Positions 1,181 to 32,000 of a stretch of 32,000 bases of DNA are shown piece after piece. The stretch comes from Candidatus Thorarchaeota archaeon (GTDB taxonomy: Archaea > Asgardarchaeota > Heimdallarchaeia > Hodarchaeales > Hodarchaeaceae). Both the position numbers and the translations under genes were made by a program. Within the stretch, counting starts at the first letter, position 1. Each line of letters begins with the position of its first letter. Location of the stretch: assembly GCA_048882505.1 (NCBI GenBank), contig JBHLRO010000010.1:94047-126046 (forward strand), read 5' to 3'. The notes beneath the pieces were generated by a model. That model saw only the letters and a list, made by a program, of their open reading frames with translations, was not told the DNA's origin and searched no databases.

Positions 1181-1185
1181 GAGGT
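1181..1185 (+). promoter_or_regulatory. Putative Shine-Dalgarno-like site for the giant ORF
   Basis: GAGGT lies 7 nt upstream of the ATG at 1193 (gaggt-aaaatat-ATG). Confidence 0.45.
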
Positions 1186-1192
1186 AAAATAT

Positions 1193-1282
1193 ATGCCAAA
1201 ATTAATCAAAAAGACTCATTCTTATCTTTTCAAAGGCCTAGTGATTTTCTCCCTTGTTCTACTTTTAGGCTCGTTTCACGCT
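1193..1282 (+). other. Signal peptide / N-terminal anchor helix of the giant protein
   Basis: MPKLIKKTHSYLFK is a basic n-region, followed by GLVIFSLVLLLG (h-region) and SFHA. Whether it is cleaved is uncertain. Confidence 0.8.
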
Positions 1283-19200: not shown

Positions 19201-22200
19201 GCCGATGGGCCATAATTTTACGATCCAGTTTACCTCTAGTGATGGAGCTGCCGGGTTGAAAAACGCTACAGGGAGCACTGACTTTGGTGGGGAGATACCA
19301 GTTGATTGGATCTATTCTAGCGGTTATGAACTCACTTATAACGTAAGCCAAGGCGACACAGACGGTGGAGACGGTGTTACAATTTCAGTTTATGATAAAG
19401 TAGGCAACAAAGTTACTGATGTTTTCTCTGTAAGCTTGGATAACACTAATCCAACTGCACCCAATATTAATAATGTTTTAGAATCCTCCGAATTTTTGTA
19501 TTACAACGCTCTTACTTTATTCTATTCTAACGATCAGGCCATGAGCGCTAGTTTCACCATTCAATTGTCGACAAGTGATAGCGGTGCAGGACTTTTAAAT
19601 GCAACGGGAGAAACCGACTTTGGAGGAGAAACCCCGAATGATTTAACCTATGTTGGGGGGTACGAGCTGACATATGTTATCAGTTCAGGTGAAACAGCTA
19701 GTGGAAACCAGGTAACGATTACGGTTTATGATAATGTCGGGAATTATGATAATTCCCAGAGCCTCGCATGTACCTTAGATAATATGGTTCCCACAGTTCC
19801 CATAATCATTGGGATCGGGGAATCTTCTGAATTTCTCTTTTACGGCGCTCCAACATTTTACTACTCCAATGACCAACCGATGAGTGACAGTTTTACCATT
19901 CAGCTTACGACTAGTGATTCGGGTTCTGGGCTACAAAATGCTACTGGAAGCGCGGAGTTCGGGGGAGAAATACCAGTAGACACTGTGTATGCTACTAGGT
20001 ATGAGCTTTCGTATACTGTATCACAGTTTGAAACCGCTGGGGGTGATAATCAGATTGTGTTAACAGTATATGATAATGTCGGGAACAGCGTAACAGGGCC
20101 ATTAAGTAGTATACTTGATAATGTTGCGCCCACAGTGCCGATCATTACTGCAGTGTATGAAGGATCGGACTACATCTATTATTCAGGATCCATACTCTAT
20201 TATTCAAATGATCAATCCATGACAGATAGTTTCACGATAGAATTTACAACCACAGATGGTTCAGCAGGCTTGCAGAATGCCACAGGAAGTGCAGAATTTA
20301 ATGCTGAAATCCCAAGCGACTCATCTTATTCGAGTGGATACAACCTCAGTTACACCATTAGTCAAGGAGAGACTGATGGAGGAGACGATGTTGTCATCAC
20401 CGTTTATGATTTTGTTGGTAATAAGATTACAAAAACATTTTTGGTGACATTGGATAATACGGCACCGAGCATTACACTAGAATCACATTCAAGTAAAATC
20501 TGGTATAATACTCCGGGTGGTATTACCTCTTACAGCGGATCTGTTTCAGACACCTTAAGTGGAATAACCAGTGCCTTCTTCAATTACTCGACTGATGGTG
20601 GAACTACAAACACATCCTTTACTGCGACTCTTGGAGGCGGGACTTGGCTAGATGACGATGAGATCACGGATACCGTGAACGATAATGTCACCCTTATTGT
20701 TTATGTCTGGGATAACGTCAAAAATGTGAATTCCACTACCGTGGAAATTTGGCATGATGATACACCACCCACTATCACCTATAATGATCCAACAGCAGGC
20801 AGCAGTACTATCTTCTATAATCTTAATGATAATGCCACCACTTTTGACATTGATTTTGGGGTTACAGGGGGTAAAACATTTTATAGTGGATTAGTAAAGG
20901 CTGAATACCAAACCGATGATGGAATGGGATGGTATACCATTTTCGATAATACAGGGGCCCCGTCGCTTCTCGATAATACCACTAACTGGAAGATTGAGCG
21001 ATGGAATGAAACGTTATTCAATGGCGTAAACACAATCGACATCCGAGTCACAGATGCCGCAGGCAACATTCGTACGGATATTTACAGTACTGGAGTATCA
21101 GGGTTCAATTTACGTCTAGATACGCAAGGACCAGTAGCATTGAGTCTTAGCGTCAAAGGAAATGAAATTGGAATTTCTGATCCCTCCTTATATGATTGGG
21201 CAGGATCAGACTTCTATCTTTCATTCAAATTCAACTCTAGTTCCAATATCACCAAATTCTATATCTATAGCGACCAAAACACTGTGATTAAATCATATCT
21301 TAATAAGTCAGGTACGGAAGTATTTACTTGGTATGAGGTTGGTCCTGGCCCCGTTTACCATAATTATACCACTGTTGATCAACTTGTTTTCTTTGACATA
21401 GGTAATACGGGGAATCGGAGTGTCTACGTTAGAGCGGAAAATCAGGCGGGGATAAATAGTAGCTGGATTCAAGTCTACCTCTTTGTGGATGAGGAGGATC
21501 CCACCCTAACGCTTACTTCCATAACTGAACTTAATCTAACGTGGACAATTCACCCAGACGTGTTGGCCGGGAATGGAACTCTCTATTTCAGTGACCAAAT
21601 GGGAGCATCAAATTCTGCTGGCTTTGACGTGACAGTTAACGCCGCTGATAGTGGAAGTGGAATGACAAATGGGTATGTTGATTTCCAAGCTTTTGAAGCA
21701 ATTCCAGCCCAAACAAACACCTATACCGGAACCTTTTCTGTTGGTCAATCAACTACTGATAGGGCATGGGTTCGAGCCTATGCAATAGATGCGTCCGGCC
21801 GAAACAGTAGTTCTATTGCAATAGTTGAAGTTATAAGAGACACTTCTGCTCCAACCTTACCAATCATTACAACTATAGTCGAGAATTCAGAGTTTCTCCA
21901 CTATGATTCAGGTTCAACTACCTTGTATTATTCGAACGACCAACCCATGAGCGCCACATTTACGATCCAACTTACAACTGCTGACTTGGGTGGTGCAGGC
22001 CTCGCAAATGCCACTGGTAGTGCCGATTTCGGTGGTGAAATTCCTACTGATACAGTATATTCGGGAAGATATGATCTTAGTTATACAATTAGCCAATCGG
22101 AGACGGCTGGAGGGGATAATCAAATTATTATAACTGTTTATGACCTGGTGGGTAATAGCAGAACAAAAACGTTAGATTCAACGATTGATAATGCCGCTCC

Positions 22201-25200
22201 CTCACCTCCTATCTTTACTGGTGTTGTTGAAAACTCCGAAAACATTCATTACAATGGAACTCATCTCTTCTACTCCAACGATCAATTGATGGACGATCTC
22301 TTCACTATTCAGTTTACCACGAGTGATGGACTGGGTGCAGGTTTACAAAATGCAACGGGAACACCGGAATTTGGCGGTGAAATTCCATTTGATGCTATTT
22401 ACTCAGCCATGTATGAGCTCTCGTATGCAATCAGCGGAGGCGAAACCGCAGGTGGAAATAATATAAACATCAGTGTTTACGATTTTGTGGGAAACTACAT
22501 CAATGCCACCTTCAAGGTTATCCTTGATAATGTGGCCCCATCGATTCCTATTATTACAGGAGTTTTAGAATCTTCAGAATTCATATACTTCGATGGTTCT
22601 ACGATCCTTTATTATTCCAATGACCAATCCATGAGCGATAGCTTCACCATCCAATTTACTACTGACGATGCACTGGCAGATTTGCAGAATGCTACGGGCA
22701 GTTCCGATTTTGGTGAAGTTAATCGAGTTGACACCACCTATTCTGCTGTTTATGAATTAAATTATACAATTGACCAATCAGAAACCGCTGGTGGTGATAA
22801 CCAAATTGTAATTACGGTTTATGACATGGTCGGGAATTCCATAACAACTGTTATGAGTTGTGTCTTGGATAATGATGCTCCTATTGTTCCCACGATCACA
22901 GGAGTTATAGAAAATTCAGAATACATGGCTTACATTGCACCCGTACTTTATTACTCAAATGATCAACCGATGGGTCATAATTTCACAGTTCAACTTACGA
23001 CAAGTGATGGAATCGTCGGACTACAAAATGCCACGGGAAGTGCAGATTTTGGCGGGGAAACTCCCAGCGACTTCTTTTATGTGGGTATGTATGAAATTAC
23101 ATATAATATAAGCCAAGACGAGACTGCTGGAGCTGGTAGTGAGGTTAATATTACTGTGTACGACTTGGTTGGAAATTTCATTACCGTTACAATGATTTGT
23201 ACGCTTGATAACATCGCGCCAACAACTCCAACCATATCGAGTATAATTGAATCCTCCGATTTTCTCTATTATGATGGCGCCATTCTTTATTATGCTAATA
23301 CTGCACCACTGATGAGTGAAAGTTTTACCATCCAGATGACAACAAGTGATTCAATTTCTGGTCTCCAAAATGCAACGGGGGAAACAGAATTTGGGGATAC
23401 TCCAAGCGATGCAATATATTCTGCTGGATATGAGCTTGTTTATACCGTAGATAACGGAGAATCTGTTCCTGACAATCAAATCACAATCATTGTGTATGAT
23501 AACGTTGGAAATAACATATCGATTAGTTTAGATACAATTCTTGACAATACTGCCCCAACGGGCCTTTCCATTAATGCTATTGATGAAAACAGTGATTTTA
23601 TCTATTATAATGGAATTGATGAGCTCTTCTTTTCTAACGACCAATCCATGAATGATCCGTTTACTATCAGGCTATCCGCACTGGAATTTCGGAGTGGAAT
23701 TCAAAATGTCACGGGCAGTTTCGATTTCGGCGAATCCCGAAGTAGCTTTTCAAATGCCTCGGGGACATTCGATTTGACCTACTCCATCGCCAGCGGAGAA
23801 ACAACAACGGCATCTGATGGAACCTTAACTCTCACAGTATATGATAATGTGGGTAATAAGGCCAGTCTAACCCTTACAGTGACATTGGATAATACTGCAC
23901 CATCGCCGCCTTCGATCACGGGCGTTTCCGAATCTTCCGAGTATTTACATTATAATTCTCCCATTCTTTTTTATTCCAACAATCAACCAATGAGTGCTAG
24001 TTTCACCATTCATTTTACGACAAACGATGTCGGTGCGGGCCGCTTAAATGCGACAGGAGAAACCGATTTTGGAGGAGATACTCCGAATGATACAATATAC
24101 GCTTCTGGGTACGACTTGATCTATACGGTGAGCCAAGCCGAAAGTGCCAGCGGAGGAGCGGTTGGCATTACAGTCTTTGACAATGTGGGAAACAGTGTCA
24201 CCGTAAGTCTAACCTGTACCTTAGATAATGCCGCCCCGACTCTGCCTATAATCACGAATATTGTGGAATCCTCCGAATATATCCATTATAATGCTCCCGT
24301 TCTATACTATTCCTCAGATCAGCCTATGAGCGATCAGTTCACGATCCAATTTACCACCAGCGATGCCATAGCAGGCCTTCAAAACGCGACAGGGGAACTG
24401 GAATTCGGAGAAACCAACGTGGTAGATACGACTTATTCAGGAGGATATGAGCTTAATTACACGATAGATAACGGAGATACTGCTACTGGTGATCAAATTA
24501 CAATCACTGTATTTGATCTGGTGGGGAACAGCGTTAGTTTGATATTAAGCGCTATACTCGACAACACAAATCCGACATCCCCGTCGATTGTTGATGTTTT
24601 GGAAACATCTGAGTACTTGTATTACGATGGGGCTACTTTTTATTACTCCAATGACGATGGATTAAGTGATTCATTTACAATTATTATTTCAACGGGTGAT
24701 TCTGGCTCAGGCCTTAAGAATGCGACAGGAGAAACGGAATTTGGCAATACACCCAGTGACACAGTATATTCTGCTGGATTTGAACTTACTTATACGGTGG
24801 ATAACGGAGAATCTGTTACTGGTGGTCAAATTACGATAACTATTTATGACATGGTCGGGAATACCGTAAGCGTTAATCTGGCTGCGACTGAGGACAATTT
24901 GGCCCCCAACATCTCCCTCTTAAACACTGCGTTACGGGAATCATCCGATTTCACTTATTACCCACTAAATGGCACGCAGGTCCTCTATTATAGTAATAAG
25001 ATGTTATCTGACGTTACAGTCTATATTAATGTGACGACCTTCGATGGATCATCAGGTCTTCAGGTAATGGAATTCCCATCACTATTCAATGTCGGCAGTA
25101 CGTTTAATACGACAGTATACAACCAATCCTATGTTGTCTCTACCACCAGCGGGGATAATGGGACATTTACTTTCAGGAGCTTCGATAATGTTGGAAATAT

Positions 25201-28200
25201 CGCTATGACAACACTAGACATTGTGCAGGATAATCAGGCCCCTGATCAATCGGTCATTAGTGCGATTACCGAAAGTTCGCAATACCTGCACACGTCGGGA
25301 GTCGCGAAGCTATGGTATTCAGATCTGATGGGTGGGGTACCGGTTTCAGTAGGTATAGATGTTAACGGAATCGATCAAGGAGGATCTCTCGCAGCGGGAC
25401 TGGCGGTGATCACTTTCCCAACCATAGGCGATGAGTCTCCAGGAAATATCACTTCTGGTGCCTCTACGTATTCTGTGACCTATAATCTCAGTTCCACTGA
25501 CAGTACCACAGGTGATTTGTTCTTCACGGTATATGATCGGGTGGGAAATACGTATCAGATCCCTCTCGAAGTGATTAATGATATTACAGTACCAACGATC
25601 AGTTTTACCGATGTCACGAATCCAATATATGATCCCGATGCTAATGAATTGGATAGCACAGGAAATTGGTATGATCAAGGTGTTCTATCCAGTGGATTCT
25701 CTGTAAGTTCCACACCTACGGATCCATTAAGTGGTTCCCGCCAAGGAAGTGGGGTATTTACCGTTTTTATTGATTGGGATAGCACCAATGATGTGGATGA
25801 TCAATTGAGTATTAATGCGGGTGCAGATGGCGATGATGTTATAACAGGCTTGACTGATGATGGGGACGGCAACATTGTAATAACCCTTACCGCCTATGAT
25901 AATGTTGCCAATTCTGCACAAACCAGCATTACGATCCGATTTGACAATACGAAGCCGTCTGCGACCGATTCGACGCTGTTAGACCAGAATGGGCCTATCA
26001 TTTCATTGTCGGGTCAATCCTCAGATGCTAGCTCTGGGGTTCAGAAGATCACAATTTTGGATTACAACGGCTCACACTTCCCCACAATAGTCTCTAGTGG
26101 ATTTTCCAGCTGGTCTCTCGACAATACATCAGCCTTAGATGGAACTATTCCAGCGGGTCAAAATATCGTAGTAAATGTGACAGTTTTTGACAACGTCAAC
26201 AATAAGGATACCTATAATGTCACTATCACGTTCCATAGCCTGAAATTTCTTGTTTTCTCCCATAACATTCCGAAACGGGTAGAGATCGATGATCCCAATC
26301 CCCTGGATTGGAATATTACCATCGATTTCGAATATGATGGCACTTTAGCTGGCAGTGGCACCACAGTGATCGATCGGTTCATCGATCTTACCCAGTTTGA
26401 AGCGTGGATAAACGATACCTCCTTGGCTATTAAGCCAGGGTCCTTGGCGTGGCTTCCTGGCCCTCGACTTCAGTTTACTGTCATTCTTCCCAATAGTTCG
26501 AGCACTCCAGAGGTGTTAGAACACCTGACCATCGGTGAGACATACCTTAAAAACCTCCGTGTGGAATGGAATATTACTACTCCCTCCATTGATGTCAGAA
26601 TCGGTCATAATGTATCAAACGTTGTGTCCTACCATGATTTGGAGATCTGGTACATCGGTGACGACCTAGATATTACAGAGACGGATAATCCCGATATCAT
26701 GAATCTGGTACTACAATTCCGTAAGGATTATCAACCTCTGGATCCATTTTCAGGAGATCTAACATTCTTTGTCAATGGAGGCTCCGCCACTTTAGAAGGT
26801 GGAATTTCTCCTGTTGGTACTGGAACAGGCAATTGGAGTGTTCCGATTCGCCTTCCATCTGGTTTGACTCCAGGCTTGCATAGCATATCCTTTAGCTGGC
26901 GGTACAACCTTGGCGAATATTACTACGTCATAGACTCTAATACCAGCATTGATGTAGTTAATTACCATGACATAGACATTACGGTGGCTCTCCCCGCCCT
27001 GGATTCGTTAAGGATATTTGAAATCGATTCAGATTTCTCATCTTTGGTCTATTTCAACATTACTGAAGATAACGGTAATGGAAGTGGACCTCTGCCAGTT
27101 ACAGGACGAGGTATCAGTGATCTTCTTGATTTTCGAATTCGGGGGCTAAGTCTCCTTTCTCACACTTCGAGTTTCCTGTCTGGGAGTGGGAATAGCGATT
27201 ATTCTTTCAACTTTACTCTCTTTGATGCTAATACTACCGCGTCTTGGATTGGAAACAACATTCTTACTTTCCGTATAAATACGAGTACAGGGTTATCAGA
27301 TTGGGGATCCATTATCCTCATCGGACATGATTTGGACGTAGTGATAAATAGTATCCTTACGATAGGTGGACTTGACATATTTGATCCTGATGAGCGTACA
27401 GAATTTGATATGATCATTCAGGTTCGAGAAGACCAAGGAAGTGGGCCTCAGGCGATCTTGGGCCTAGATATCGGTAATTTTGTGAGACTTTACATGGAGA
27501 ATGTGGGAGATCCCACCAAGAATGCCACTATTGGCTTCGTTGATAGTTGGAACCCGACTGTAAACGCCGGTGAATATACCGTTCGTTTCACATTAGAGGC
27601 CCTTGCCGCCAGCCAGCTTAGCCTCGGTCCAATTAGAGTAACATTCGAACTAAACGACTTTGAAGGTCATCGCGCGTTTGATTCCAATACCGATTTAGAT
27701 AGTAGAGATTTTGTTAACCTTTTGGGTTTGGAATGGATTAGTACACCCTTTGGTTTCTTTACATTCGATCCAGCTAATACTACTTCGGATATTACGTTCC
27801 GTTTGTCGTTGAATCAGGTTTTACAGGTCAACTTCCGCATTTACGCTCTAGATACTGGGCTTACTCTTACCGATCCTATTAATGTATACTGGGAAACCCC
27901 GTGGAATACCTCCCAGCCCAATCCTCCACCAATCTTGAGATCTGGGAACGTTACTCTTAATCTGACCTCTAGTCAGCCGTATCGTCAGGCTTTCATTGCC
28001 TATGCAGAGGGTAATCGGGAGAAACAATTACAATTCCAGCCGTGGCGTTTCTACGTTGAGTGGGATAGAATGATTGCATCGAATGTGACCATTGATGATT
28101 ACTCTACCTCGGCGGATAACAACAGCGTCCTTAATGCTGGCGGCAATTATACTTTAATTTATACTGCACTCTTTGATCAGTCCGGTAAAACTGCTGGCAG

Positions 28201-31200
28201 CAGTCAACTACAGCTCAACTTAACTGTTTTTGAATTCATTGGGGGTGGTTGGAGTCCAGTTGACGGTAGTCTCACTGAACATTTGGCCAACGGAACTGAT
28301 ATAATTTACCCAGTGGTTGGGGGAATGGTGACCATAGATCATTTAGATGGAATTGGTTCACGAATCTTCTCCATCGATAATGGGTCTCAGATCATTGGAA
28401 TAATGACAGTCTATGACACTCAGAATGTTTTTCCTTTTGGAGATGGACAGCTCCAAATTGACCTCCAATTCTTTGATTTAGCCAAAGTGGATTTAACGGT
28501 TCGTCCTATAACTGAAATTGAATCGGGGGTGACTTATCGCTTTTATTCCTCTTACCCTCCATACGCTGGTCCTGTGTACTCTTTGGTTAATGATACATCT
28601 GGTGCCATTTTCCAGGAAACTTTGATTTGGACGAAATTTTTAGTAACTCTGACCCCAGAAGATGGACGAATTCCAAAACTCACCACGGGTACAATCTACG
28701 TGGATGTTGCATACGCTCACGACAGCACCTGGGTACTCGATAACCAAGTTAGGGTGTTTCTCCTCGATAATACACTTGATCAAAATCGTTCTGAAGCCAA
28801 TTGGATAAGCAACAGGGCAACGTTCACAGGCCTACTTTCCCAAGGAATTGTCGAATTAGTTAAATATAATATCTCCGCTTTTGTGGACTCCCGATATGGG
28901 ATTTTCGTCTTTGAGGATGCAATATCGGGATCTTCTGATGCATACACGGAAATAATCTGGGACCAAGTTATTTTTGAGTTTACCCTTGCAGAGCCATGGG
29001 GCGCAGATTTACGGTTCAACGTTAATTCCAGCGCCATTATTCAGGTAAAGGCATATTATGACTTTGATAAAACACCATTTAACGGAACTATCCTCACAAG
29101 GCATCGTAATATCTATACCCCCATGTTGACGGAATTTACCCAGGTTCGGAACTGGAATGATAGTGTAGCGATTAAACTAAAGCCTGATGAACCAGAACAA
29201 AGCGGCCCGGGAACGACTCTCTTTTTGTTAATCAATGTAACCGATGACTACAGCTGGGGTCTCAATGGCACTCGCCCTGGCTTAGGTTATCGAGTGATCT
29301 ACGGAACTGGGAGTAAGTTCATGATTTTAAGATGGGATCGCATTATTATGGAATTTGAGCATGCCCCCTCCTATAACCCAGGTGATTCCTTGAATATGAC
29401 CCTGAAAGCTTATTATGAGAGCACCTTGACACTTATAAATACTTCTAACTTTGTTTATACAGTTTATAAGGACGGGCAGCTGTACCCACCTGAGAACAGA
29501 TCCGTTCTCTCCTTTAATGACCATGAAATGTACCCACGAAGTCATACCTACATGATCGCCTTCGCGTATGATTTCCTGACAAATTTGACGGGTTCTTATG
29601 ATTCACTTACGAAAAACCCATTTCCTTCTGATGTTGTTCCATGGATTGATACCCAAAATCCCCGTTTGGTGGAACAGAAACTTATCGATTTTGGCAACGG
29701 GACGCTCGGGTTTCTTGTAGTTGCTACTGACGATCTCCCAGAAGTCTATTTCGGGAGTGGAATAGAGAATGTGACGGTTCAACTGACAATCGGGACATCG
29801 TTACCATCCCGCACCAGGTGGTTATTAAGGCGATATGCAAACATGAGCTCAGGTGTAATATTCTTTGGCAATGTTACAACGGGAAGTTCTACTGAAGACT
29901 TTAGATGGAATAATACAATCACCTACAGGCTAGTCATAACGGATAAAAATGGAAATCCCCGATCCTGGGATTTCCGTGTGAATCTTCTTGCAGATAGCGG
30001 TCCCCCTGAAATTTCGAAGGTAACGGTTTCGTATTCAAATGATACCGATGGCAATCTCACGCTTGAAGCTTTTAGTTACGATGAATGGGCGGGGCTATTG
30101 AATGCCTCCATAAGTTTCCGTACCTTGGGAGATTCAAACTGGTCGACTCCAGTATTAATGGATCTTACTCTACTTGATAAGGATAACAATGGGACGTTTT
30201 CAATCCCTAAAATGTTTGCAGTTGGCGCAAGCAAGGAATATAAAATTGTCATTTTCGATCGTGCTGGGAATTCTGCTGCCTTTGAAGGATTGATTCAAGT
30301 TCTGGACAGAGCTGGCCCGCAAGTATTGCAACCAATAACGCGAGAAACTTTCACGTTTGAACAGAATAAGTTCGGTGAATTCTTCATCCAGATTCAGGTG
30401 GTTGATAACGGTTCAGACATTGCGAATGCTATCCTGCTTTACGAGATCGCAGGAACTATTGGTAGCATTGAATTGACCGAGATATCTGGTAGTATCGCAG
30501 GTGAGGGCTCCTCGATTTTGGCCGCTGCTTACAGGGATCAACGAACGTTTTCCCGAAGGTTCACCATTCAGCCTGATCTAATTAATACCCAGTCCCCAAG
30601 GTTTTCCTTACTTCTGACTGATTCGGAAGGAAATCAACGTACAATTACCAATTCACAAATTATGGCATGGTGGGAGAGCATTTACCCACAGGATACCCGT
30701 CCAATTGATAGTATTGTACCAAGCGTCTTTCAGTTAATTGAAGAACCACTTGTATTGATTATCATGGCTGTATTCATACTAGGTTTCGCCTTCGTTGCTG
30801 TTCAGCGTTTCCGTACGATCAGTGGATTTGATAAGAAGAAGGTTTTACAGGACATTACTAAAGTTTCTGATACGGAGGTGTGGGAAGAAAATGACAAGAT
30901 CTCAATTGGTTTAACAGCCAGCTTCTTTGATCAGGTGAAAGGGCCTCAACCAATCATTGTATATCCGGATCGATTATGGTCATCGGAGATGATGATTGTA
31001 TCGTTAGCTGATCGTTCTTTTTCAACGCTCGGATTTGTACCAAATCCTAATGATGACAAACACGCGACCTTCCGCTATCACATCAGTGGTGAGAAATGTA
31101 CCGTCTTTGGATATGCTTTTGCGATCGAAAATCCGGAAGCGCGTGGTGGACAGGAGAATCTGGCAATCTGCTTCGTAATTCGTCCTCCTTGGGGTACACT

Positions 31201-31381
31201 AGAGAATTTAAATCGATTCTTGAATGAATTATTGGAACATATGCGGCGAATTAGCAACCTCATGAAGGAAGGAGTTGATACGAAAGTCGTCCAGAAAGAG
31301 ATGGAAAAAACTCGAGACTTCCTGACGAGAGCGATGCTGGTATTCCGCAGAAAATACAAGAAGGAGTTTGTTGAAAAATGA
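1193..31381 (+). CDS. Giant (10,062 aa) membrane-anchored Ig-repeat surface glycoprotein with a cytoplasmic longin/uDENN-like C-terminal domain
   Basis: This is an uninterrupted 30-kb frame with an N-terminal signal peptide. It has dozens of ~113-aa repeats ending in (Y/F)D-x-V-G-N ... D-x-x-x-P, typical of bacterial/archaeal Ig-like domains. The composition is S/T/D/G-rich and K/R-poor. A C-terminal hydrophobic helix is followed by QRFR...KKK and then a folded 192-aa tail. Confidence 0.95.
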   Translation: MPKLIKKTHSYLFKGLVIFSLVLLLGSFHALEPSNSLYPVTNIFSFGTKGPISDGIDNHTFISETGRQVHEITSSTPAYKIRLIFPVPGESADFLTLRLKARYTEEFTNLIRWNQNKNVSISVFPFESSIMDGINQSVQVLDAMELYWGTTIKFPFNNTALEGRDYFEIAFFMWNRTSVLTGLQFEDITFKNTPTPLSGQNNLLMGFLSTSAVCLWIAFPNRFSPLVACFIMIALVIVPLTLTLQTIRFLDNVEKTEAGVSRFTFFGRVYEQRDLGNGLFSLRMVKDLSRAFELQALSGTGDSDIYPGVFKDETVSQELQGIETVFLQPIMDSTDSIDSPVTYGSQFTPLLPRYKFSDITGNPGWWNTSYKYVRQVNITANSALDTNYTVQADLDTSTPVTASKMRADGKDLRVAYYNQTDSTWYELDRVILNNNSQKTAVFFRLQKAVSASSSDNNYAIFYGVQGNPGIPPNSTNKIFLDNDDFSSKNLNNYNLATNWAAALDTSKPTNIGWWITEDIALHSGGTNDYLNRSNLLTTNNEIIVLGKLTTSGGTKTSIELRSNASPSDDLRITHLSSSPYLRLERYNGTIYTLSSTTGSFSTTTWYLYKFNFVGDTMKARVWEAGQDEPSTWNLTYTASSGDNFPSNGHLLFKSNGGMEIGMWALRAGLSNDPAVTVDLEQQELVKITDIQIQNTEYNGSRYWDNNDGSADDFIRIKITAVWNVTGDPYLGELSVGHSLNPTYFGSTSGNVGGTTTIDVEENPIGSVTTFDGITVGAAIVGPNNPFGTDVYLDPGLTFSDIGWDAAEPTGGSWSTDFDTTDNTGDGFTPYGAGFGIYDAFYDDAAYTADASGWSDGTGAGILEYYIKSSAGNLGPADADGVDVSTTLPAEGVHNIQYAIQDQVGNWANGSAIINVYYSTAAPSGFTVDINGTGSWTPTTPSYAWISNPTAITSGTLYLGQAGNSIWNITVNEGTWNAGGAWQVIFESGWGGTEVSDTAAPYYSANYHSNTNAEADINTFIVNRNGVVSTITIRTLSDTSAPEMASISVTGDSPIPGYSDWDQDGAGFSIDRATITEKGDFGLAINASNSETFANYRYMGGTSPSTAITVTHLWIRTTGSGTAAVALYTGGTLSNPTTATKQAEAFNVAVSAGWNRIDIPDTLVSADAIVWMSVALDTGLYYATSGNGLKGDWQESRGRWSQSGGSDPTQASPNNPGSGSFAPAWYNMYMEYDGGAGGNQAVYDVDNSNPSFDLSSNDPYTYPVDVGADGTYTFYAVAVDRVGNKGIVRSDLGFVDETDPILGTTSFTDADYTNATHDYYDQGVRATATYRIPFTETNVFNITVVDIINAADRASDAAAGQTSPFDSTISLSNLFSDGEYTITITITDKVGRTDTTVTGGPTSIFLDNTDPVLTDALSSFEETSGEITKVYGLPGSELFYFANSFTGGAIIRLYATGTDSGSGVRGIDFGVFGADNPAEDTVSPYRGQYTINNDDVSGTITVTIYDKVGNSDSGIITATEDAANPSISLSGETESSTFLYAAYGDNTQGVYGSLMGTTQGYTISGTASDATAGLLSLSDNTTFGDNPSNTGSLSNWQFIYTIDTADNGDIVVVYTATDNVGNNNTVTYTFYEDNSNPLITDPMSIYQESGDTGEVYGDIGSDVFYFSNSFSTFATVTFTATGLEAGKAGIRGIDFGSFGSDDPGEDTSAPFTGQYTINGADLAGSITVTIYDNVGNSGSDTITCTEDAAPPTISITGETESSAYLYAGYGTVKEGVYGSGMGSLQSYTISGTASDADAGLLSITDDQSFGNDPSNSGTNSSWSFVYQIDAADSGNVVITYTATDLVGNTATDAYTFNEDNTNPSITVTQAASATNESSIFLYYDNVSAFGYYSPNMLGVLQTFNVGGTASDASGLASVTDDTTFGNNPARSGSLTSWSFGYQIDDGDAVYGTFTVTYTATDNVGNTFTDSFQFIFDNTNPTVSVDTAYILDGGSPYLHWDGVGSKIWYGDDMPSGQSLTVGIDAADASSGLDYAIAANHFGGTAAQLTDDTEDTNGGRTYDVPVVDINATDTWTGSFGITVYDNVGNSLQTTVDISRDTGIPSISVTGEIESSVYLYAGYGTTKQGVYSGSGMGSIQSFTISGTASDASSGLYSITDNSAFGDDPINTGSNASWLFLYQIDSGDNGDVTIAYTATDLVGNTAGDTYTFFEDGTNPTLTDNMSAYAEFVDTTEVYGVTGTDTFYFSNSFSSSATVEFTATGFDTGYAGVRGIDFGTFGGDNPVEDTSAPYIGQYTINNVDSSGSITVTIYDNVGNNDSGTITCIEDATNPSLSDPMSAYTEDSGDIADVYGVIGTNTFYFSNTIPTSAMVTFTATGSDTGGAGVRGIDFGSFGGDDPTEDTSAPYQGQYTLTNADATGAITVTIYDNVGNPGSATITCTEDSTNPSLSDAMSAYSEDAGDTADVFGNEGTNLLYFSNTIPTSATVTFTATGSDASSGVRGIDFGVFGENPAEDTSAPYTGTYIIDNSDTSGSITVTIYDNVNNSASGTITCTEDSTSPSLSDAMSAYNEISGEDTDVYGLIGSNTFYFSNSFSTSVTINFTATGSDSGSGVRGIDFGTFGADNPVEDNTAPYEGTYVIDNADTSGSITVTIYDQVNNFASATITATEDSTNPTLSDPMSAYSEDAGDLGDVYGIIGSDTFYFSDSFTSSATVTFTATGSDAGGAGLRGLDFGIFGGNDPIEDPSAPFTGQYVIDNASSSGSIQVVIYDNVNNSNIGTITCIEDAINPSGIILSSYLDLDDNTGDGYVPSDGTGTNTEAFYDEATFIADVSVTEAGSGILSLQLKRLGGSYGTNVPSGTNVDATLALGNNSIYYMIIDNVGNNATGFANVDVFYSTAAPTGMDIDITGTGLWSKTSPSYAWIFDSTDITSGTLYLGNVGNTNWGIVMDGSGNWNAGGEWKVIFEAGWGQATDITDTTPSFSTGNVYSSNIGAEADIWVDIVNRNGISQRIILTTTADTTGPTMASITVTGDSPVVSNWDQNGAEFNIDFATTSDGGSGANGWYVEYNNPVPRANWTTLDPYVYTNDVGDGSSNPYPFYAVPVDKVGNIGAGVRSDNGFIDETDPILGTTSFTDAGYTNGNENWYDHGTAGSATFRIPFTELNVYSISVVCTIASSDRASDAGIDQTSPFDSTITLLNTYPDGTYVITITVMDKSGRTDTTVAGGPTWINLDNTDPSISVSGESETSNFLYAEYGTIVQGYYGSGMGASLQDFTISGIASDTGVGVSSITDNTSFGNNPSNGGSPTSWSFLYQIDVADNGNVTVIYTASDYVGNTATTLYTFYEDNTAPTGYSLSLDPDTTTDIGYLPNTNYYDDDSVDVTTGGTITEIHSGLPSLRYTYRIGSNAWSPWSDVSIHQFTGVLDGTYNLEVMVRDNVGNNGTAQAASSSVTVDTDSPAKFNLTLTRVGSGFGANFNETLMELIFNSQKNDFFTANITSNGTSDIGNSGYWKIEWDKYSQFETASNITIAGLPESKNFNYLGDVNGTFLIRLINNAGNYQEWNITAIEVVATVTLTITEIVESSDFLYHDGIISHNYGYYSDKMGGTVVFTLRGTATTTSGGLMFTTDDNSTLSAANTGTESNWEFNYTFDSTTGSTYDTFLVIITGTDNLAFTGNTTFEFRYDNTNPTAPTIIGISESSVNLYYNSTDFIYSSDQAMTDPFTIQVTTSDNGVGDVGLYKANASSDFGAEVPEDSSYTTQYDLTYTVSQSETAGGDNQVIIAVYDLVGNNASVSLNCLLDDTPPTVTVTGESENSWYLYAGYGSGNEGVYGSLMTISLAYTISGTAVDTIAGLISLDDNTTFGDNPGNTGTLSSWQYVYVIDAADNGNITVVYSASDNVGNIGTTSYRFYEDNTAPTVPTQLITNPSGSPYLYLNSTARFYFSDQMGLTPVEVQISGTGSDALAGLKNATFPAHFGDSPAADLTPTSWQASYNIHGTDPEQTGPQTNINVFVYDNVGNVNTVTFTFKGDNSSPNVSLTGISEDALVYYLYVASNSLIYYSTVGSGNRNFTVTVLVQEPLAVLDAGVKNVSFPNVFTGSDGGINASSGGSHSRTWQWSYSIPISAIENGSFTITAYDQVNNSQSIDLEIYHDSAAPSAPTITDVLESSEFLYYSASTLFYSNDQVMSASFTIQLTTADLESGLENATGSADFGGETPNDSIYSGGYELSYVINQGETDGGDDVVVTVYDKVSNSITVTLTVTLDNTAPTGLSVNSVYEYGSEFLHVIGSTLYYSNDQTMSEDFTIEVLASDVDSGLLNATGEAEFGNSPGDISYLAGYNLTYTIDMGESAGGGNVIVWIYDNVGNNASISLITTLDNSGPTSITITNVIETSDFLYYDGAREILFFSNDQTMSELFTIQVTAVDPAAGIKNATGETEFGDSPVDTTYSAGFDLSYTIDLSEATSDGYVTVTIFDMCANSNTVDLNTTVDNVGPRDQKITQINDFGSKYIYLYNGSSLILYINNQTSSDYLFFIYVSDNEPANESGRYLAEGSLYFGEIPVATTYQYVLRYTLNQTENVDNGTLVITTFDRCNNSNSVGLTVQVDRTPPALVPGYSFNDFGSDYIHNNGTHFIFSSLMPFTQTIRISGSVTDIYASVNGSGIDHVDYLPAFGSSPTTTFGPSWIADYGINSTDSEHGSNGSVSFRVYDNVNNSRLIFIPYVSDTTPPSGLSIIDILEDLLPEYLHYNSTLIAIFYSHVRPEKGERKFTVRVSAADLGGAGLRNTSFPTIGVGFSTGGFDTSDADGFWNFSYTEDGSSGTFNGSLTVTVYDNVGNSNTVNFNVYSDFAPPAGLTLVELIEDSDFLYYDPGSETFYYSNSHSTPQPFTINITADDPNAVHSGLLGANGSVDFSETHSTVVFDGNFSLTYDVSNGESASGNDLTITVYDKVGNSADFHLSSILDNLAPSAPTITNVVENSYLLYYSAPTFYYSNDQTMSASFTIQLTTSDTLAGLRNATGSADFGGETPSDSVYSGGYELSYTISQGETDGGDGVLITIYDRVGNSVTGSLTVLLDNVSPTGSILTLLESSEYLYFNGTHLFYSNDQSMSDPFTIRVTSSDAASGLLNATGEDDFGDINVGDTSYSTYYELTYLVDSGDSASGAQVDIFVYDQVGNSLSLALSAVIDNDAPSSVTLSSLTGTDIANYLYFNGTHLFYSNDQVMSESFTLKLVVTELISGIKNVTGTLDFGTIPSTTTNVSGTFDIQYTVDQSETAGLDNQINISAFDNVGNVHSSFVLPVILDNTGPIIPAIQNVIENSEYLYYSGTTLYYANSHPTQSEKFSVNITASDTLSGILWINGSIDFGETPSDPDYAKGYFLVNYTVGFNEEASGSQIAFTVYDRVKNTNSITLNLNKDNTAPSGISITSVTENSEYIYYSLGTKILYYSSDQAMLGQPFTITIVAQDNVGGAGLFNLTGSTEFGDTPSDLTYVGEYSVNYIIDSFETNVSAIILSVYDRVGNLNNSITLDLKLDNAAPSAPSITGIVESSPYLYYSSPTFYYSNDQPMGHNFTIQFTTNDTLAGLQNATGSVDFGGEIPVDVIYSAGYEITYNVSQGETDGGNDVVITVYDLVGNSITGTLNVILDNAAPTVPTITDVLAPSEFLYYNGTHFFYSNDQPMSDSFTIQLTTSDALAGLKNATGSTEFGGETPVDTGYLSGYELTYTISSGETDGGDDVVITIYDLVGNSITGTLNVILDNAAPMAPTITGVLESSEHLHYSAPTFFYSNDQPMADSFTIQLTTGDSDSGLQNATGSTDFGGETPSDTSYSAGYDLIYTVDQSETAGGDNQIVITIYDQVGNFISVSLDSVLDNTGPINTNLVTVVIQKNIQNLYYANGTKTLYYSNDISVSDSFSVRVSAQDPSSGLQKANASEFGETPSTTDYSSGYYQLSFTVNTGESSPSFTVTVWDNVGNPSNIALTTVLDNNAPSAPIITGVIESSPYLYYSSPTFYYSNDQPMGHNFTIQFTSSDGAAGLKNATGSTDFGGEIPVDWIYSSGYELTYNVSQGDTDGGDGVTISVYDKVGNKVTDVFSVSLDNTNPTAPNINNVLESSEFLYYNALTLFYSNDQAMSASFTIQLSTSDSGAGLLNATGETDFGGETPNDLTYVGGYELTYVISSGETASGNQVTITVYDNVGNYDNSQSLACTLDNMVPTVPIIIGIGESSEFLFYGAPTFYYSNDQPMSDSFTIQLTTSDSGSGLQNATGSAEFGGEIPVDTVYATRYELSYTVSQFETAGGDNQIVLTVYDNVGNSVTGPLSSILDNVAPTVPIITAVYEGSDYIYYSGSILYYSNDQSMTDSFTIEFTTTDGSAGLQNATGSAEFNAEIPSDSSYSSGYNLSYTISQGETDGGDDVVITVYDFVGNKITKTFLVTLDNTAPSITLESHSSKIWYNTPGGITSYSGSVSDTLSGITSAFFNYSTDGGTTNTSFTATLGGGTWLDDDEITDTVNDNVTLIVYVWDNVKNVNSTTVEIWHDDTPPTITYNDPTAGSSTIFYNLNDNATTFDIDFGVTGGKTFYSGLVKAEYQTDDGMGWYTIFDNTGAPSLLDNTTNWKIERWNETLFNGVNTIDIRVTDAAGNIRTDIYSTGVSGFNLRLDTQGPVALSLSVKGNEIGISDPSLYDWAGSDFYLSFKFNSSSNITKFYIYSDQNTVIKSYLNKSGTEVFTWYEVGPGPVYHNYTTVDQLVFFDIGNTGNRSVYVRAENQAGINSSWIQVYLFVDEEDPTLTLTSITELNLTWTIHPDVLAGNGTLYFSDQMGASNSAGFDVTVNAADSGSGMTNGYVDFQAFEAIPAQTNTYTGTFSVGQSTTDRAWVRAYAIDASGRNSSSIAIVEVIRDTSAPTLPIITTIVENSEFLHYDSGSTTLYYSNDQPMSATFTIQLTTADLGGAGLANATGSADFGGEIPTDTVYSGRYDLSYTISQSETAGGDNQIIITVYDLVGNSRTKTLDSTIDNAAPSPPIFTGVVENSENIHYNGTHLFYSNDQLMDDLFTIQFTTSDGLGAGLQNATGTPEFGGEIPFDAIYSAMYELSYAISGGETAGGNNINISVYDFVGNYINATFKVILDNVAPSIPIITGVLESSEFIYFDGSTILYYSNDQSMSDSFTIQFTTDDALADLQNATGSSDFGEVNRVDTTYSAVYELNYTIDQSETAGGDNQIVITVYDMVGNSITTVMSCVLDNDAPIVPTITGVIENSEYMAYIAPVLYYSNDQPMGHNFTVQLTTSDGIVGLQNATGSADFGGETPSDFFYVGMYEITYNISQDETAGAGSEVNITVYDLVGNFITVTMICTLDNIAPTTPTISSIIESSDFLYYDGAILYYANTAPLMSESFTIQMTTSDSISGLQNATGETEFGDTPSDAIYSAGYELVYTVDNGESVPDNQITIIVYDNVGNNISISLDTILDNTAPTGLSINAIDENSDFIYYNGIDELFFSNDQSMNDPFTIRLSALEFRSGIQNVTGSFDFGESRSSFSNASGTFDLTYSIASGETTTASDGTLTLTVYDNVGNKASLTLTVTLDNTAPSPPSITGVSESSEYLHYNSPILFYSNNQPMSASFTIHFTTNDVGAGRLNATGETDFGGDTPNDTIYASGYDLIYTVSQAESASGGAVGITVFDNVGNSVTVSLTCTLDNAAPTLPIITNIVESSEYIHYNAPVLYYSSDQPMSDQFTIQFTTSDAIAGLQNATGELEFGETNVVDTTYSGGYELNYTIDNGDTATGDQITITVFDLVGNSVSLILSAILDNTNPTSPSIVDVLETSEYLYYDGATFYYSNDDGLSDSFTIIISTGDSGSGLKNATGETEFGNTPSDTVYSAGFELTYTVDNGESVTGGQITITIYDMVGNTVSVNLAATEDNLAPNISLLNTALRESSDFTYYPLNGTQVLYYSNKMLSDVTVYINVTTFDGSSGLQVMEFPSLFNVGSTFNTTVYNQSYVVSTTSGDNGTFTFRSFDNVGNIAMTTLDIVQDNQAPDQSVISAITESSQYLHTSGVAKLWYSDLMGGVPVSVGIDVNGIDQGGSLAAGLAVITFPTIGDESPGNITSGASTYSVTYNLSSTDSTTGDLFFTVYDRVGNTYQIPLEVINDITVPTISFTDVTNPIYDPDANELDSTGNWYDQGVLSSGFSVSSTPTDPLSGSRQGSGVFTVFIDWDSTNDVDDQLSINAGADGDDVITGLTDDGDGNIVITLTAYDNVANSAQTSITIRFDNTKPSATDSTLLDQNGPIISLSGQSSDASSGVQKITILDYNGSHFPTIVSSGFSSWSLDNTSALDGTIPAGQNIVVNVTVFDNVNNKDTYNVTITFHSLKFLVFSHNIPKRVEIDDPNPLDWNITIDFEYDGTLAGSGTTVIDRFIDLTQFEAWINDTSLAIKPGSLAWLPGPRLQFTVILPNSSSTPEVLEHLTIGETYLKNLRVEWNITTPSIDVRIGHNVSNVVSYHDLEIWYIGDDLDITETDNPDIMNLVLQFRKDYQPLDPFSGDLTFFVNGGSATLEGGISPVGTGTGNWSVPIRLPSGLTPGLHSISFSWRYNLGEYYYVIDSNTSIDVVNYHDIDITVALPALDSLRIFEIDSDFSSLVYFNITEDNGNGSGPLPVTGRGISDLLDFRIRGLSLLSHTSSFLSGSGNSDYSFNFTLFDANTTASWIGNNILTFRINTSTGLSDWGSIILIGHDLDVVINSILTIGGLDIFDPDERTEFDMIIQVREDQGSGPQAILGLDIGNFVRLYMENVGDPTKNATIGFVDSWNPTVNAGEYTVRFTLEALAASQLSLGPIRVTFELNDFEGHRAFDSNTDLDSRDFVNLLGLEWISTPFGFFTFDPANTTSDITFRLSLNQVLQVNFRIYALDTGLTLTDPINVYWETPWNTSQPNPPPILRSGNVTLNLTSSQPYRQAFIAYAEGNREKQLQFQPWRFYVEWDRMIASNVTIDDYSTSADNNSVLNAGGNYTLIYTALFDQSGKTAGSSQLQLNLTVFEFIGGGWSPVDGSLTEHLANGTDIIYPVVGGMVTIDHLDGIGSRIFSIDNGSQIIGIMTVYDTQNVFPFGDGQLQIDLQFFDLAKVDLTVRPITEIESGVTYRFYSSYPPYAGPVYSLVNDTSGAIFQETLIWTKFLVTLTPEDGRIPKLTTGTIYVDVAYAHDSTWVLDNQVRVFLLDNTLDQNRSEANWISNRATFTGLLSQGIVELVKYNISAFVDSRYGIFVFEDAISGSSDAYTEIIWDQVIFEFTLAEPWGADLRFNVNSSAIIQVKAYYDFDKTPFNGTILTRHRNIYTPMLTEFTQVRNWNDSVAIKLKPDEPEQSGPGTTLFLLINVTDDYSWGLNGTRPGLGYRVIYGTGSKFMILRWDRIIMEFEHAPSYNPGDSLNMTLKAYYESTLTLINTSNFVYTVYKDGQLYPPENRSVLSFNDHEMYPRSHTYMIAFAYDFLTNLTGSYDSLTKNPFPSDVVPWIDTQNPRLVEQKLIDFGNGTLGFLVVATDDLPEVYFGSGIENVTVQLTIGTSLPSRTRWLLRRYANMSSGVIFFGNVTTGSSTEDFRWNNTITYRLVITDKNGNPRSWDFRVNLLADSGPPEISKVTVSYSNDTDGNLTLEAFSYDEWAGLLNASISFRTLGDSNWSTPVLMDLTLLDKDNNGTFSIPKMFAVGASKEYKIVIFDRAGNSAAFEGLIQVLDRAGPQVLQPITRETFTFEQNKFGEFFIQIQVVDNGSDIANAILLYEIAGTIGSIELTEISGSIAGEGSSILAAAYRDQRTFSRRFTIQPDLINTQSPRFSLLLTDSEGNQRTITNSQIMAWWESIYPQDTRPIDSIVPSVFQLIEEPLVLIIMAVFILGFAFVAVQRFRTISGFDKKKVLQDITKVSDTEVWEENDKISIGLTASFFDQVKGPQPIIVYPDRLWSSEMMIVSLADRSFSTLGFVPNPNDDKHATFRYHISGEKCTVFGYAFAIENPEARGGQENLAICFVIRPPWGTLENLNRFLNELLEHMRRISNLMKEGVDTKVVQKEMEKTRDFLTRAMLVFRRKYKKEFVEK
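1799..1925 (+). other. Internal transmembrane hairpin (two hydrophobic helices)
   Basis: LLMGFLSTSAVCLWIAF, a short loop PNRFSP, then LVACFIMIALVIVPLTLTL. Confidence 0.7.
2285..2650 (+). other. DUF2341-like domain
   Basis: The segment has the recognisable family signature: GWWNTSYKYVRQVNIT ... LDTST...KMRADGKDLRV ... ELDRVI ... VFFRLQ ... YAIFYG ... IFLDNDDF. Confidence 0.75.
2650..3230 (+). other. ConA/LamG-like lectin-glucanase beta-sandwich (putative glycan-binding)
   Basis: WYLYKFNFVGDTMKARVWEAGQDEPSTW...GHL matches the pattern W-x-x-h-K-h...G..h-K-A-R-V-W..G..E-P..W. This pattern is common in ConA-like domains that follow DUF2341. Confidence 0.55.
3617..5422 (+). repeat. Multi-domain block A, copy 1 (602 aa including a 156-aa insertion)
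   Basis: It is colinear with 9548..10888 and shares DNTGDG, AFYD, YSTAAP, SGTLYLG, WNAGGxW, VNRNG, SIxVTGDSP, DETDPILGTTSFTDA, QTSPFDSTI and GRTDTTVxGGPT. Confidence 0.9.
5423..7834 (+). repeat. Mixed zone of class B (GVRGIDFG) and class C (YLYAGYG / DNTTFGDNP) Ig-like repeats
   Basis: Class B copies are at 5423..5764 and 6101..6442. Class C copies are at 5765..6100, 6443..6778, ~6779..7129 (variant) and ~7496..7834. Further class C copies occur at ~10889..11227 and ~12587..12922. Confidence 0.85.
7835..9547 (+). repeat. Five tandem class B Ig-like repeats (~114 aa each)
   Basis: Consensus: SLSDxMSAYxE...VYG..G..TFYFSN...SATVTFTATGSD.G.GVRGIDFG.FG.DNP.EDTSAPY.G.Y.I.N.D.SGSITVTIYDNV.N...TITCTEDxTNP. 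Confidence 0.92.
9548..10888 (+). repeat. Multi-domain block A, copy 2 (447 aa)
   Basis: It has the same motifs as copy 1. A 25-nt stretch is identical: acgagtccgttcgattcaaccatca at 5273..5297 and 10739..10763. Confidence 0.9.
16064..20467 (+). repeat. Thirteen tandem class E Ig-like repeats (~113 aa each)
   Basis: Consensus: P.IT.V.ESSE.LYY....FYYSNDQPMS.SFTIQLTTSD..AGL.NATGS.DFGGE.P.D..YS.GYEL.Y.I.QGET.GG..V.ITVYD.VGN....L...LDN.AP. About five more class E copies lie between 12240 and 16063. Confidence 0.92.
21854..24907 (+). repeat. Nine tandem class E Ig-like repeats
   Basis: The consensus is the same as the first class E array, and 3054 nt / 9 gives about 339 nt per unit. Confidence 0.92.
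26231..30720 (+). other. Membrane-proximal stalk of divergent beta-sandwich domains
   Basis: The sequence is not near-repetitive but has periodic linkers. H-type linkers have His codons at 26234, 26633, 26966 and 27326. W-type linkers have Trp codons at 27734, 28061, 28628, 28958, 29333 and 29642. Three Ig-like domains follow, ending in TDKNGN, FDRAGN and TDSEGN. N-x-S/T sequons are dense throughout. Confidence 0.65.
30749..30802 (+). other. C-terminal transmembrane helix (aa 9853-9870)
   Basis: LVLIIMAVFILGFAFVAV is followed by QRFR...DKKK, consistent with the positive-inside rule. Confidence 0.92.
30899..31378 (+). other. Cytoplasmic longin/uDENN-like domain (FLCN/SMCR8/NPRL2-type)
   Basis: The first hairpin reads IGLTASFFDQVKGPQPIIVYP (compare SMCR8 FSEQVGPQPLLTIP, recalled). 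Next is helix MMIVSLADRSF, then hairpin CTVFGYAFAIENPEARGGQENLAICFVI (compare FLCN [28 protein letters not shown], recalled), then two C-terminal amphipathic helices. This beta-beta-alpha-beta-beta-beta-alpha-alpha order fits the longin fold. Confidence 0.8.
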
Positions 31382-32000
31382 TGAAATCAGGAATAAATCG
31401 GATTATAAACTCCAGATCGATTAACAATATTATTTCCTTCTTGTTAATTGGCATATTCACGATTTCGTTCTACGTAGAAGTATCGAATGGCCTCATGGGC
31501 GTTGCTCCTTCTAATCATGAATCTATCAGTTCAAATAGTCCAGGTGATTTAAGATTAATGTCATCTTCACCTTATGATCTCACGGATTCCTCTTTTAATG
31601 AAGAAACGAGAACATTGGCATCATCTTCTGAGACTGGAGACATTTATACTAGTGGTGAAGCCTTTGCGCCTCAGTCGAGCGAAAGGTTTCCTAGATCTGT
31701 ACCGAGATTTGATGTGGGAGGTTCTAGCGATGGTCATGTGGTAATCAATCGAATTAGTCCCGAAGCCATGGAAATCAATGCTACACAGATGGAATTTATA
31801 TTAAACTTTACAATCATCAATTCCCCAGGAAATCCTTCCTCTGCTCTTGAAAATCTGACCATATCAAATGCTACAAACGTATTTCGAATTACGGATATTA
31901 CTAACTGGTATTTCAGTGTAAGTCCGTTAACCGATAACTATTCCTTGAATTTCATACTAAACAGTACGGTATTATCCGATTTAACCTTTGGAGAGTATAA
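31378..32000 (+). CDS. 3'-truncated secreted/surface protein, translationally coupled to the giant ORF (missing from the ORF track)
   Basis: ATG at 31378 (and in-frame 31381) overlaps the TGA at 31379..31381. Manual translation is open to the window end: MMKSGINRIINSRSINNIISFLLIGIFTISFYVEVSNGLMG... It has a signal-like N-terminus, a Ser-rich linker, then beta-rich sequence with six sequons (NAT, NFT, NLT, NAT, NYS, NST). Confidence 0.88.
   Translation, partial: MMKSGINRIINSRSINNIISFLLIGIFTISFYVEVSNGLMGVAPSNHESISSNSPGDLRLMSSSPYDLTDSSFNEETRTLASSSETGDIYTSGEAFAPQSSERFPRSVPRFDVGGSSDGHVVINRISPEAMEINATQMEFILNFTIINSPGNPSSALENLTISNATNVFRITDITNWYFSVSPLTDNYSLNFILNSTVLSDLTFGEY

Follow-up and report, generated by a model that had tools for sequence, protein, structure and literature searches.

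The stretch analysed here, referred to as the window, comprises 32,000 nucleotides (nt) of a contig of a Candidatus Thorarchaeota archaeon (JBHLRO010000010.1, C10 below). It holds the giant gene A and, overlapping the end of that gene, the first part of a second gene, gene B. A preliminary description made from the letters of the window had proposed that gene B encodes a second surface protein, translationally coupled to gene A and possibly its partner. We compared gene B with genomes of the same genus, which includes Ca. Hodarchaeum mangrovi and B3_Heim (Hodarchaeales). It almost certainly stands between A and C in an operon, A-B-C(-D), that is conserved in Hodarchaeum. Table 1 lists the features discussed.

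Table 1. Positions of the features of genes A and B and of related genes (window positions unless a contig or locus is named)
Feature	Position	Strand	Basis or remark
Gene A, first of the A-B-C-D run: single-pass surface protein of 10,062 amino acids (aa) with a transmembrane (TM) helix and a folliculin-type longin tail at the C-terminus	1193..31381	+	orthologues 5,809-10,431 aa
Gene A, membrane-proximal ~1,400 residues (8666-10062), colinear with gene B residues 181-1531	27188..31381	+	gene B profile against gene A; BLAST
Gene A, cytoplasmic longin tail; Gly-Pro (GP) motif at 30923-30946, Arg9984 at 31142-31144	30803..31378	+	
Shine-Dalgarno (SD)-like AGGAG within the last codons of gene A, 11 nt 5' of ATG 31378	31362..31366	+	
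Stop/start overlap: gene A TGA within gene B ATG-ATG	31378..31383	+	
Gene B, first 207 of ~1,545 codons; frame open up to the contig end	31378..32000	+	
Gene B, putative signal peptide or signal-anchor helix, residues 15-33	31420..31476	+	hydropathy; only hydrophobic helix in the window piece
Gene B, Ser/Thr-rich linker, residues 39-112	31492..31713	+	30% S+T; poorly conserved
Gene B, first folded extracellular unit, probably immunoglobulin (Ig)-like; sequons at 31777, 31804, 31852, 31867, 31936, 31960	31714..32000	+	Atlas feature leads below 0.9 only
Gene B, residues ~607-1546	contig C9:124209-127031	minus	identity to the G016 orthologue and synteny
Gene D, ~78 aa, zinc-finger-like (CxxC...HG...H), behind gene C	G000 C9:120794-121033; L043:13695-13928	minus (C9)	
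Further TM-longin surface proteins of G000	C1:14121; C4:53159; C4:109910; C8:38567; C17:58678; C35:9610; C50:5921		

Gene order and the junction of genes A and B

The last codons of gene A are GAA-AAA-TGA. The preliminary description had read the junction correctly: the TGA (31379..31381) overlaps the start codons in AAA-ATG-ATG and the second frame stays open to the window edge, which is the end of contig C10. Two starts are available for gene B, ATG 31378 (-4 overlap) and ATG 31381 (-1 overlap), and the former is the likelier one because its 11-nt SD spacing is conserved. The signal-like helix and the six sequons that had been noticed were likewise found. The helix is present in all orthologues with an assembled N-terminus. 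The sequons (N134, 143, 159, 164, 187 and 195) compare with 2.6 expected from the composition, and five of them recur in 16-20 of 22 orthologues.

We judged gene B to be a genuine gene because its 207-residue piece has matches in long open frames in 12 of 21 same-genus genomes, at one place each (E 5e-12 to 6e-80). Where complete, these frames span ~1,530-1,565 aa, and the full-length orthologues have 1,501-1,563 aa. The N-terminal piece had no match in the 19 genomes of other families that were searched. In the closest relative (G016) the orthologue has 1,546 aa and the window piece matches its residues 2-208 at 65%. A 940-aa frame, open at its 5' side at the end of contig C9 of our assembly, matches residues 607-1546 of the same orthologue at 84%. 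At the DNA level, each of the two contig ends (C10 and C9) is ~85% identical to one and the same G016 contig, where the two stretches lie ~1.19 kb apart, and the gene order downstream of gene B is the same on C9 and in G016. No k-mer overlap linking the C10 end to any other contig of the assembly was found, nor were the middle ~400 residues of gene B found in the assembly. We infer the join of C10 and C9 through gene B from synteny with G016, not from reads. As had been expected, the frame appears to continue well past the window, to ~1,545 aa.

The conservation of gene B directly behind the giant gene, which had also been anticipated, was observed in all 11 genomes with an assembled junction and on four further contigs. 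Gene C (~960-1,060 aa) follows gene B in 16 of 16 loci at a distance of -8 to +15 nt, and gene D follows gene C on the same strand in all 16, usually 35-105 nt behind. Genes A, B and C are each single-copy and the A-B-C unit spans ~37.8 kb.

For the A/B junction we observed the AGGAG at 9 nt before the gene A stop in 10 of 11 relatives; the eleventh has GGAGG nearby. The motif is complementary to the 16S 3' end of this genome. It requires particular synonymous codons, and it is used at only 19 (5%) of the 378 other K/Q/R-E dicodons of these genes; this contrast is large, though the relatives share ancestry and are not independent samples. Upstream of gene C a 4-6-nt match to the anti-SD sequence occurs in 16 of 16 loci. 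An overlap of -4 or -1 at the A/B junction is possible in 8 of the 11 relatives (+1, +6 and +22 in the others), whereas it is possible in only 3.8% of the 1,709 co-directional neighbour pairs in a crude open reading frame (ORF) set of this genome. Neither a terminator-like site nor a conserved TATA-like box for a separate gene B promoter was found at the junction; a sigma-70 promoter scan of the junction is unsuited to archaea.

The junction fits termination-reinitiation as described for overlapping gene pairs (PMC6728339, PMC10666635), with which it shares the -4/-1 overlap and an SD motif inside the upstream gene. It differs from the usual pairs in its 30-kb upstream cistron, which makes no mechanistic difference and is the one unusual point about an otherwise ordinary stop/start overlap. 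Of the proposed coupling via ATGA, the conserved AGGAG supports co-translation, whereas the overlap differs between genomes (-4 to +22 nt). A, B and C would probably be made together from a single transcript. Short-distance gene pairs are 4.5- to 8.1-fold enriched in subunits of heteromeric complexes, which account for 30-45% of them compared to 6-7% otherwise (PMC10666635). This raises the odds of an A/B/C complex but does not show one.

Architecture of gene B and its longin tail

The complete gene B comprises an N-terminal helix, a beta-rich ectodomain of ~1,200-1,300 aa, one TM helix and a tail of ~193 residues. The ectodomain carries 40 sequons, compared to 15.6 expected. Pfam and NCBIfam gave Ig-like matches below threshold only and the Atlas feature matches remained below 0.9; from its spacing we read the ectodomain as about ten Ig-like units. 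The gene B profile matches gene A in order: residues 181-496 of B correspond to 8666-8971 of A (independent E-value 9.6e-13) and residues 593-1531 to 9131-10058 (2.7e-99). In a BLAST comparison the two proteins are 25% identical over 995 columns (E 5e-56). No other protein of this genome matches the gene B ectodomain as far as gene A does. Because its alignment with the end of gene A is colinear and reaches further than that with any other protein of the genome, we regard gene B as a short tandem paralogue of that end without A's ~8,500-residue distal stalk. As a paralogue of the membrane-proximal part of A with about one sixth of its length, gene B does not suit the role of a second filament that had been suggested for it.

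The AlphaFold2 model of the gene B tail (mean predicted local distance difference test, pLDDT, 89.4; predicted TM-score 0.86) contains two juxtamembrane helices followed by a longin core, with five strands and helices in longin order, and an extra C-terminal helix. The best structural match was the Lokiarchaeota longin 8yqg (Z 14.6, root-mean-square deviation 2.9, 140 residues aligned), followed by FLCN (6nzd_H; Z 11.9, 2.5, 134 aligned) and C9orf72-SMCR8 (7o2w_A; Z 11.5). Lst4 and GATOR1 chains were also matched, and Foldseek returned 8dhb_J at E 1.9e-4. In the Atlas the best match came from other Asgard archaea, a fusion of a longin with a small GTPase (TM-score 0.67), and a Heimdallarchaeota PF11704 cluster was matched at 0.65. 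PDB sequence searches with the tail or its alignments gave helical chance matches only. The preliminary description had suggested a TM helix and a second longin domain, possibly with a DENN domain, at the C-terminus. The TM helix is present and the model supports the longin domain, whereas no DENN or NPRL-type domain follows it: all orthologues end 10-12 residues past the last long helix.

Two motifs stand out in this domain. The GP motif (G45-P46, at the start of strand E45-52) and the arginine R112 (Arg1465 of the G016 orthologue), in the loop between strands E96-107 and E115-125 (NPxARGGKEN), are invariant in 16 of 16 gene B tails, and both are retained in 38 of 38 full tails. Both motifs are hallmarks of the catalytic subunits (FLCN, NPRL2, SMCR8) and also of a class of Asgard longins (PMC12290439). 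By position and motif, R112 would be equivalent to FLCN R164. The longin core is 87-98% conserved compared to ~40% in the ectodomain, and strands beta1-beta3, helix alphaA and the finger loop reach 95-98%. On the model and these motifs, the gene B tail looks like a catalytic-type longin domain of the folliculin/SMCR8/NPRL2 kind.

Gene C has a similar layout (signal helix, ectodomain, one TM helix, longin-type tail, acidic end), and the tails of A, B and C all have ~190-210 residues. The gene C tail is homologous to that of gene B (HHalign 97.5%), and its Atlas model matches C9orf72-like and folliculin clusters at TM-scores of 0.60 and 0.59. None of 42 gene C tails carries GP; an insert of ~13 residues replaces the Arg finger loop, without a conserved Arg there. 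The tail is nevertheless 61-75% identical across distant members. Its AlphaFold2 model was poor (pLDDT 45) and was kept out of the fold searches. A complex prediction with the tails of B and C scored 0.00 in two runs, with the fold of C itself uncertain, and thus weighs neither for nor against such a pair. In this genome gene C contains a 100-N scaffold gap (L043:16795-16894) flanked by a duplicated stretch of ~24 residues, which inflates its length to 1,046 aa; the G016 gene C has 986 aa.

In the tail trees B and C each form one clade, as does A in the larger tree, and all three lie outside the large clade of the other Hodarchaeum paralogues. Two assignments were dropped. The gene C tail is most similar to that of B, yet the trees leave C unplaced or pulled to another long branch, so that B and C were not kept as sister paralogues. 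The single ~1,500-aa TM-longin of other families forms a separate clade and was not kept as the orthologue of gene B.

A candidate longin complex at the membrane and its alternatives

The best overall explanation is in our view a membrane-anchored longin GTPase-activating protein (GAP) formed by A, B and C, in which a motif-bearing tail works with that of C; we give it a probability of roughly 0.45. Gene B encodes a type I membrane glycoprotein of ~1,545 aa that arose, as the alignment shows, by tandem duplication with A. Co-translation would supply A, B and C together, and the three would gather in the membrane with their tails inside the cell. By analogy, a pocket of two longins would arise from the motif-bearing tail of B or A and the motif-less tail of C; it would speed GTP hydrolysis by one of the genome's Rag-like or Arf-like GTPases, whose genes lie elsewhere, and the ectodomains would set the place or time at which the GTPase is switched off. 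Gene B would then be a short catalytic co-receptor next to the long sensor A. The GTPase pocket of the eukaryotic complexes is built from two longins, one of which contributes the Arg (PMC8213707); a motif-bearing tail with C is the closest reading because A and B can supply this Arg and C cannot. A GTPase client for the gene B tail fits because its best Atlas match is a longin fused to a small GTPase. In its favour, too, Rag-like GTPase genes adjoin three of the seven further TM-longin paralogues of this genome and the single-copy TM-longin homologue of other families. Rag-like GTPases of this genome are encoded at C1:25193, C1:29098, C4:33208, C4:36036, C4:49729, C4:50863 and C50:3947. Considered separately, a physical complex among A, B and C seems reasonably probable, and a GAP function of the gene B tail slightly better than an even bet, both by analogy.

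Several observations weigh against this explanation. For Asgard GP-motif longins a GAP activity has only been proposed in the literature, and even in model organisms no more than the 30-45% of short-distance pairs are complex subunits (PMC10666635). In two loci, L039 (G002) and L093, where a GGAGG of its own precedes gene B, the start is at +22 nt, a distance at which reinitiation is abolished in Haloferax (PMC10666635); they do contain a TAATG overlap, but not in the reading frame of gene B. In G007 and G012 gene B has an in-frame -1 start as well as a downstream SD-led start. Because the first two loci use the distant start and the latter two keep both, we suspect that one subclade may have moved from coupling to fresh initiation of gene B. 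The small tail tree joins A with B (93/92) and leaves the long-branched C unplaced, so the duplication history singles out no B:C pair. Gene B looks catalytic because the fold, GP and Arg are kept, yet it is not a strict FLCN family member, because it has no DENN domain and the Pfam PF11704 Folliculin profile scores the G016 tail at 16.9 bits, below the curated cut-off of 23.3. Across the family PF11704 matches 26 of 144 members at E<=0.01 (best 1.9e-4). Finally, no GTPase gene adjoins A-B-C in any locus read; the small GTPase or roadblock genes that the preliminary description had proposed to look for are absent from the A-B-C locus.

The pairing envisaged in the preliminary description is a different one. 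With their stalks in register and abreast, A and B might bind each other directly, and their tails would form a pseudo-symmetric longin dimer with two Arg fingers that might act on both GTPases of a heterodimer, with C as an accessory or competitor. The two proteins are colinear over ~1,350 residues, their tails are sister groups in the small tree, the SD signal is best conserved at their junction and the closest solved structure, 8yqg, is described as a dimer. Duplication alone explains the colinearity, however, and a motif-less candidate partner is already in the operon with C. In FLCN-FNIP, NPRL2-NPRL3 and SMCR8-C9orf72 only one subunit bears the Arg (PMC12290439), and we consider a direct A:B pair unlikely. 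The FLCN-FNIP analogy, which had been drawn for A and B, fits this pair poorly because both keep the Arg; gene B retains both catalytic-type motifs and the degenerate tail belongs to C, beyond the window.

This genome encodes seven further surface proteins (1,554-4,328 aa) with the same TM helix and longin tail at the C-terminus, and none of them has a longin-bearing neighbour gene. A dedicated partner may thus be unneeded, and A, B and C could be co-expressed paralogous receptors of differing reach that remain physically independent: each would act as a homodimer on one common downstream GTPase, and C would serve as a decoy or scaffold. The adjacency of tandem duplicates persists without binding, and the A/B overlap is lost in some relatives. 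On the other hand, the 1:1:1 order of A-B-C is fixed throughout the genus, in contrast to the number and position of the other paralogues, which vary freely, and the strong conservation of the motif-less C tail is easier to explain with a conserved partner. We regard this arrangement, too, as improbable.

Most longin domains serve as platforms or as parts of guanine nucleotide exchange factors (GEFs); many such domains are among the structural matches of the gene B tail. The three proteins could accordingly be structural surface or adhesion proteins whose longin tail tethers them to a scaffold in the cytoplasm or associates with a GTPase non-catalytically, as a platform or in a GEF-like manner. 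The heavily glycosylated Ig-like ectodomains would suit this role. Cultures of the Hodarchaeales HC1 and SC1, which belong to another family, show unexplained helical surface filaments at contacts with their methanogen partners (10.1101/2025.02.26.640444), and giant TM-longin proteins are candidates for these filaments. Against a purely structural role, the loss of the motifs in C alone suggests a catalytic distinction, and the invariant exposed Arg and GP are characteristic of the GAP subgroup, and other longins lack them (PMC12290439). We consider this role quite improbable.

For the proposed A/B/C GAP the closest known systems are FLCN with FNIP1/2 (Lst7-Lst4 in yeast), SMCR8 with C9orf72-WDR41 and NPRL2 with NPRL3-DEPDC5. 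Like these catalytic subunits, gene B has a longin domain with an added C-terminal helix, GP before strand 2 and Arg in the loop between strands 4 and 5, and a motif-less longin protein, C, is linked to it, here by gene order. Unlike them, it is known from sequence and model, has no DENN domain, shares 13-15% identity and is a single-pass membrane protein with a glycosylated ectodomain of ~1,300 aa and a C-terminal, cytoplasmic longin; there are also two motif-bearing genes (A and B) per motif-less gene. Gene B keeps the Arg finger and GP, in contrast to the non-catalytic partners FNIP1/2 and NPRL3. FNIP2 and NPRL3 lack GP (PMC12290439), as does the gene C tail. The structurally closest protein, the Lokiarchaeota Roadblock-Longin 8yqg (dimeric according to the entry title), is a soluble roadblock fusion with 13% identity.

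Within the archaea, gene B shares the domain, the two motifs and the class with the Folliculin/SMCR8-type GP-motif longins (PMC12290439) and the NPRL2-like/DENN longin fusions (10.1101/2020.10.19.343400). The fusion partners that these sources name are two-component signalling domains, unlike the TM helix and Ig-like ectodomain of gene B, which moreover belongs to a three-gene unit with a degenerate member. A literature search of incomplete coverage found nothing on TM-fused longin operons, on Asgard longins fused to single-pass Ig-like receptors or on such a three-gene unit. The domain and its motifs are thus known already in Asgard longins, and we found no published description of the receptor fusion or the three-gene unit.

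Plexins offer a functional analogy, without homology. They are single-pass receptors with a cytoplasmic GAP for small GTPases that is controlled by receptor pairing, with co-receptors; their GAP has the RasGAP fold and their ectodomain is of the Sema/PSI/IPT type. In eukaryotes, the Rag and Arf GTPases of the lysosome are regulated by longin GAP heterodimers. A more specific proposal, which we advance as speculative and rather doubtful, is by analogy that A, B and C act as an archaeal, membrane-tethered longin GAP of the receptor type. Contact outside the cell would then govern how the catalytic tails (A, B) pair with the non-catalytic one (C), and through this pairing Rag-like or Arf-like GTPases would be inactivated. 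If true, this would parallel the division into catalytic and non-catalytic subunits seen in FLCN-FNIP, NPRL2-NPRL3 and SMCR8-C9orf72, or be related to it, in a lineage that has been proposed to be nearest to eukaryotes; B would be the short co-receptor that accompanies a sensor of 10,000 residues. The published Asgard longins with the two motifs come without partners, substrates or location. The conserved A-B-C unit combines all components of a candidate asymmetric complex, and each of them is membrane-anchored behind a large ectodomain. Because the tails of ~190-210 residues can be expressed alone, a pre-eukaryotic origin of the longin GAP switch and of the catalytic/non-catalytic split is directly testable.

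Flanking genes and further observations

Two apparent departures from the gene order, 'B-C without A' in G009 (L042) and 'C alone' in G006 (L061), were rejected, as both are pseudo-scaffolds with 100-N joins adjoining or within these genes. These 'single-contig' genomes are concatenations with such joins, which produce false gene fusions and false neighbours.

Gene D had no Pfam or PDB match. A paralogue of it lies at C2:315776 in this genome, and weakly related modules open proteins of ~170-335 aa in other Asgard families. A conserved gene of 134-137 aa, without a Pfam match, converges on gene D (L043:13233-13646; equivalents in L031-L047 and L091-L095). It is followed in every locus read by a small membrane-protein gene and then by a class I lysyl-tRNA synthetase gene. 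At the other end of the run we observed an SD-like GAGGT just 5' of the gene A ATG (window 1180-1192) and a regulator gene upstream (window 20-796) that is kept in G007 and G017.

In families f3 and f4 (L048-L055) a single TM-longin gene of ~1,440-1,600 aa is preceded by a small GTPase-like gene and followed by a Rag-like GTPase gene; in most cases there is also a second, convergent Rag-like gene. Stand-alone soluble copies of the tail, of 172-184 aa and without TM helix or ectodomain, were found at L070:5479-6033 and L068:8003-8521. An ORF of 14,728 aa, longer than gene A and without a longin tail, lies at C14:6851-51037 on the minus strand.

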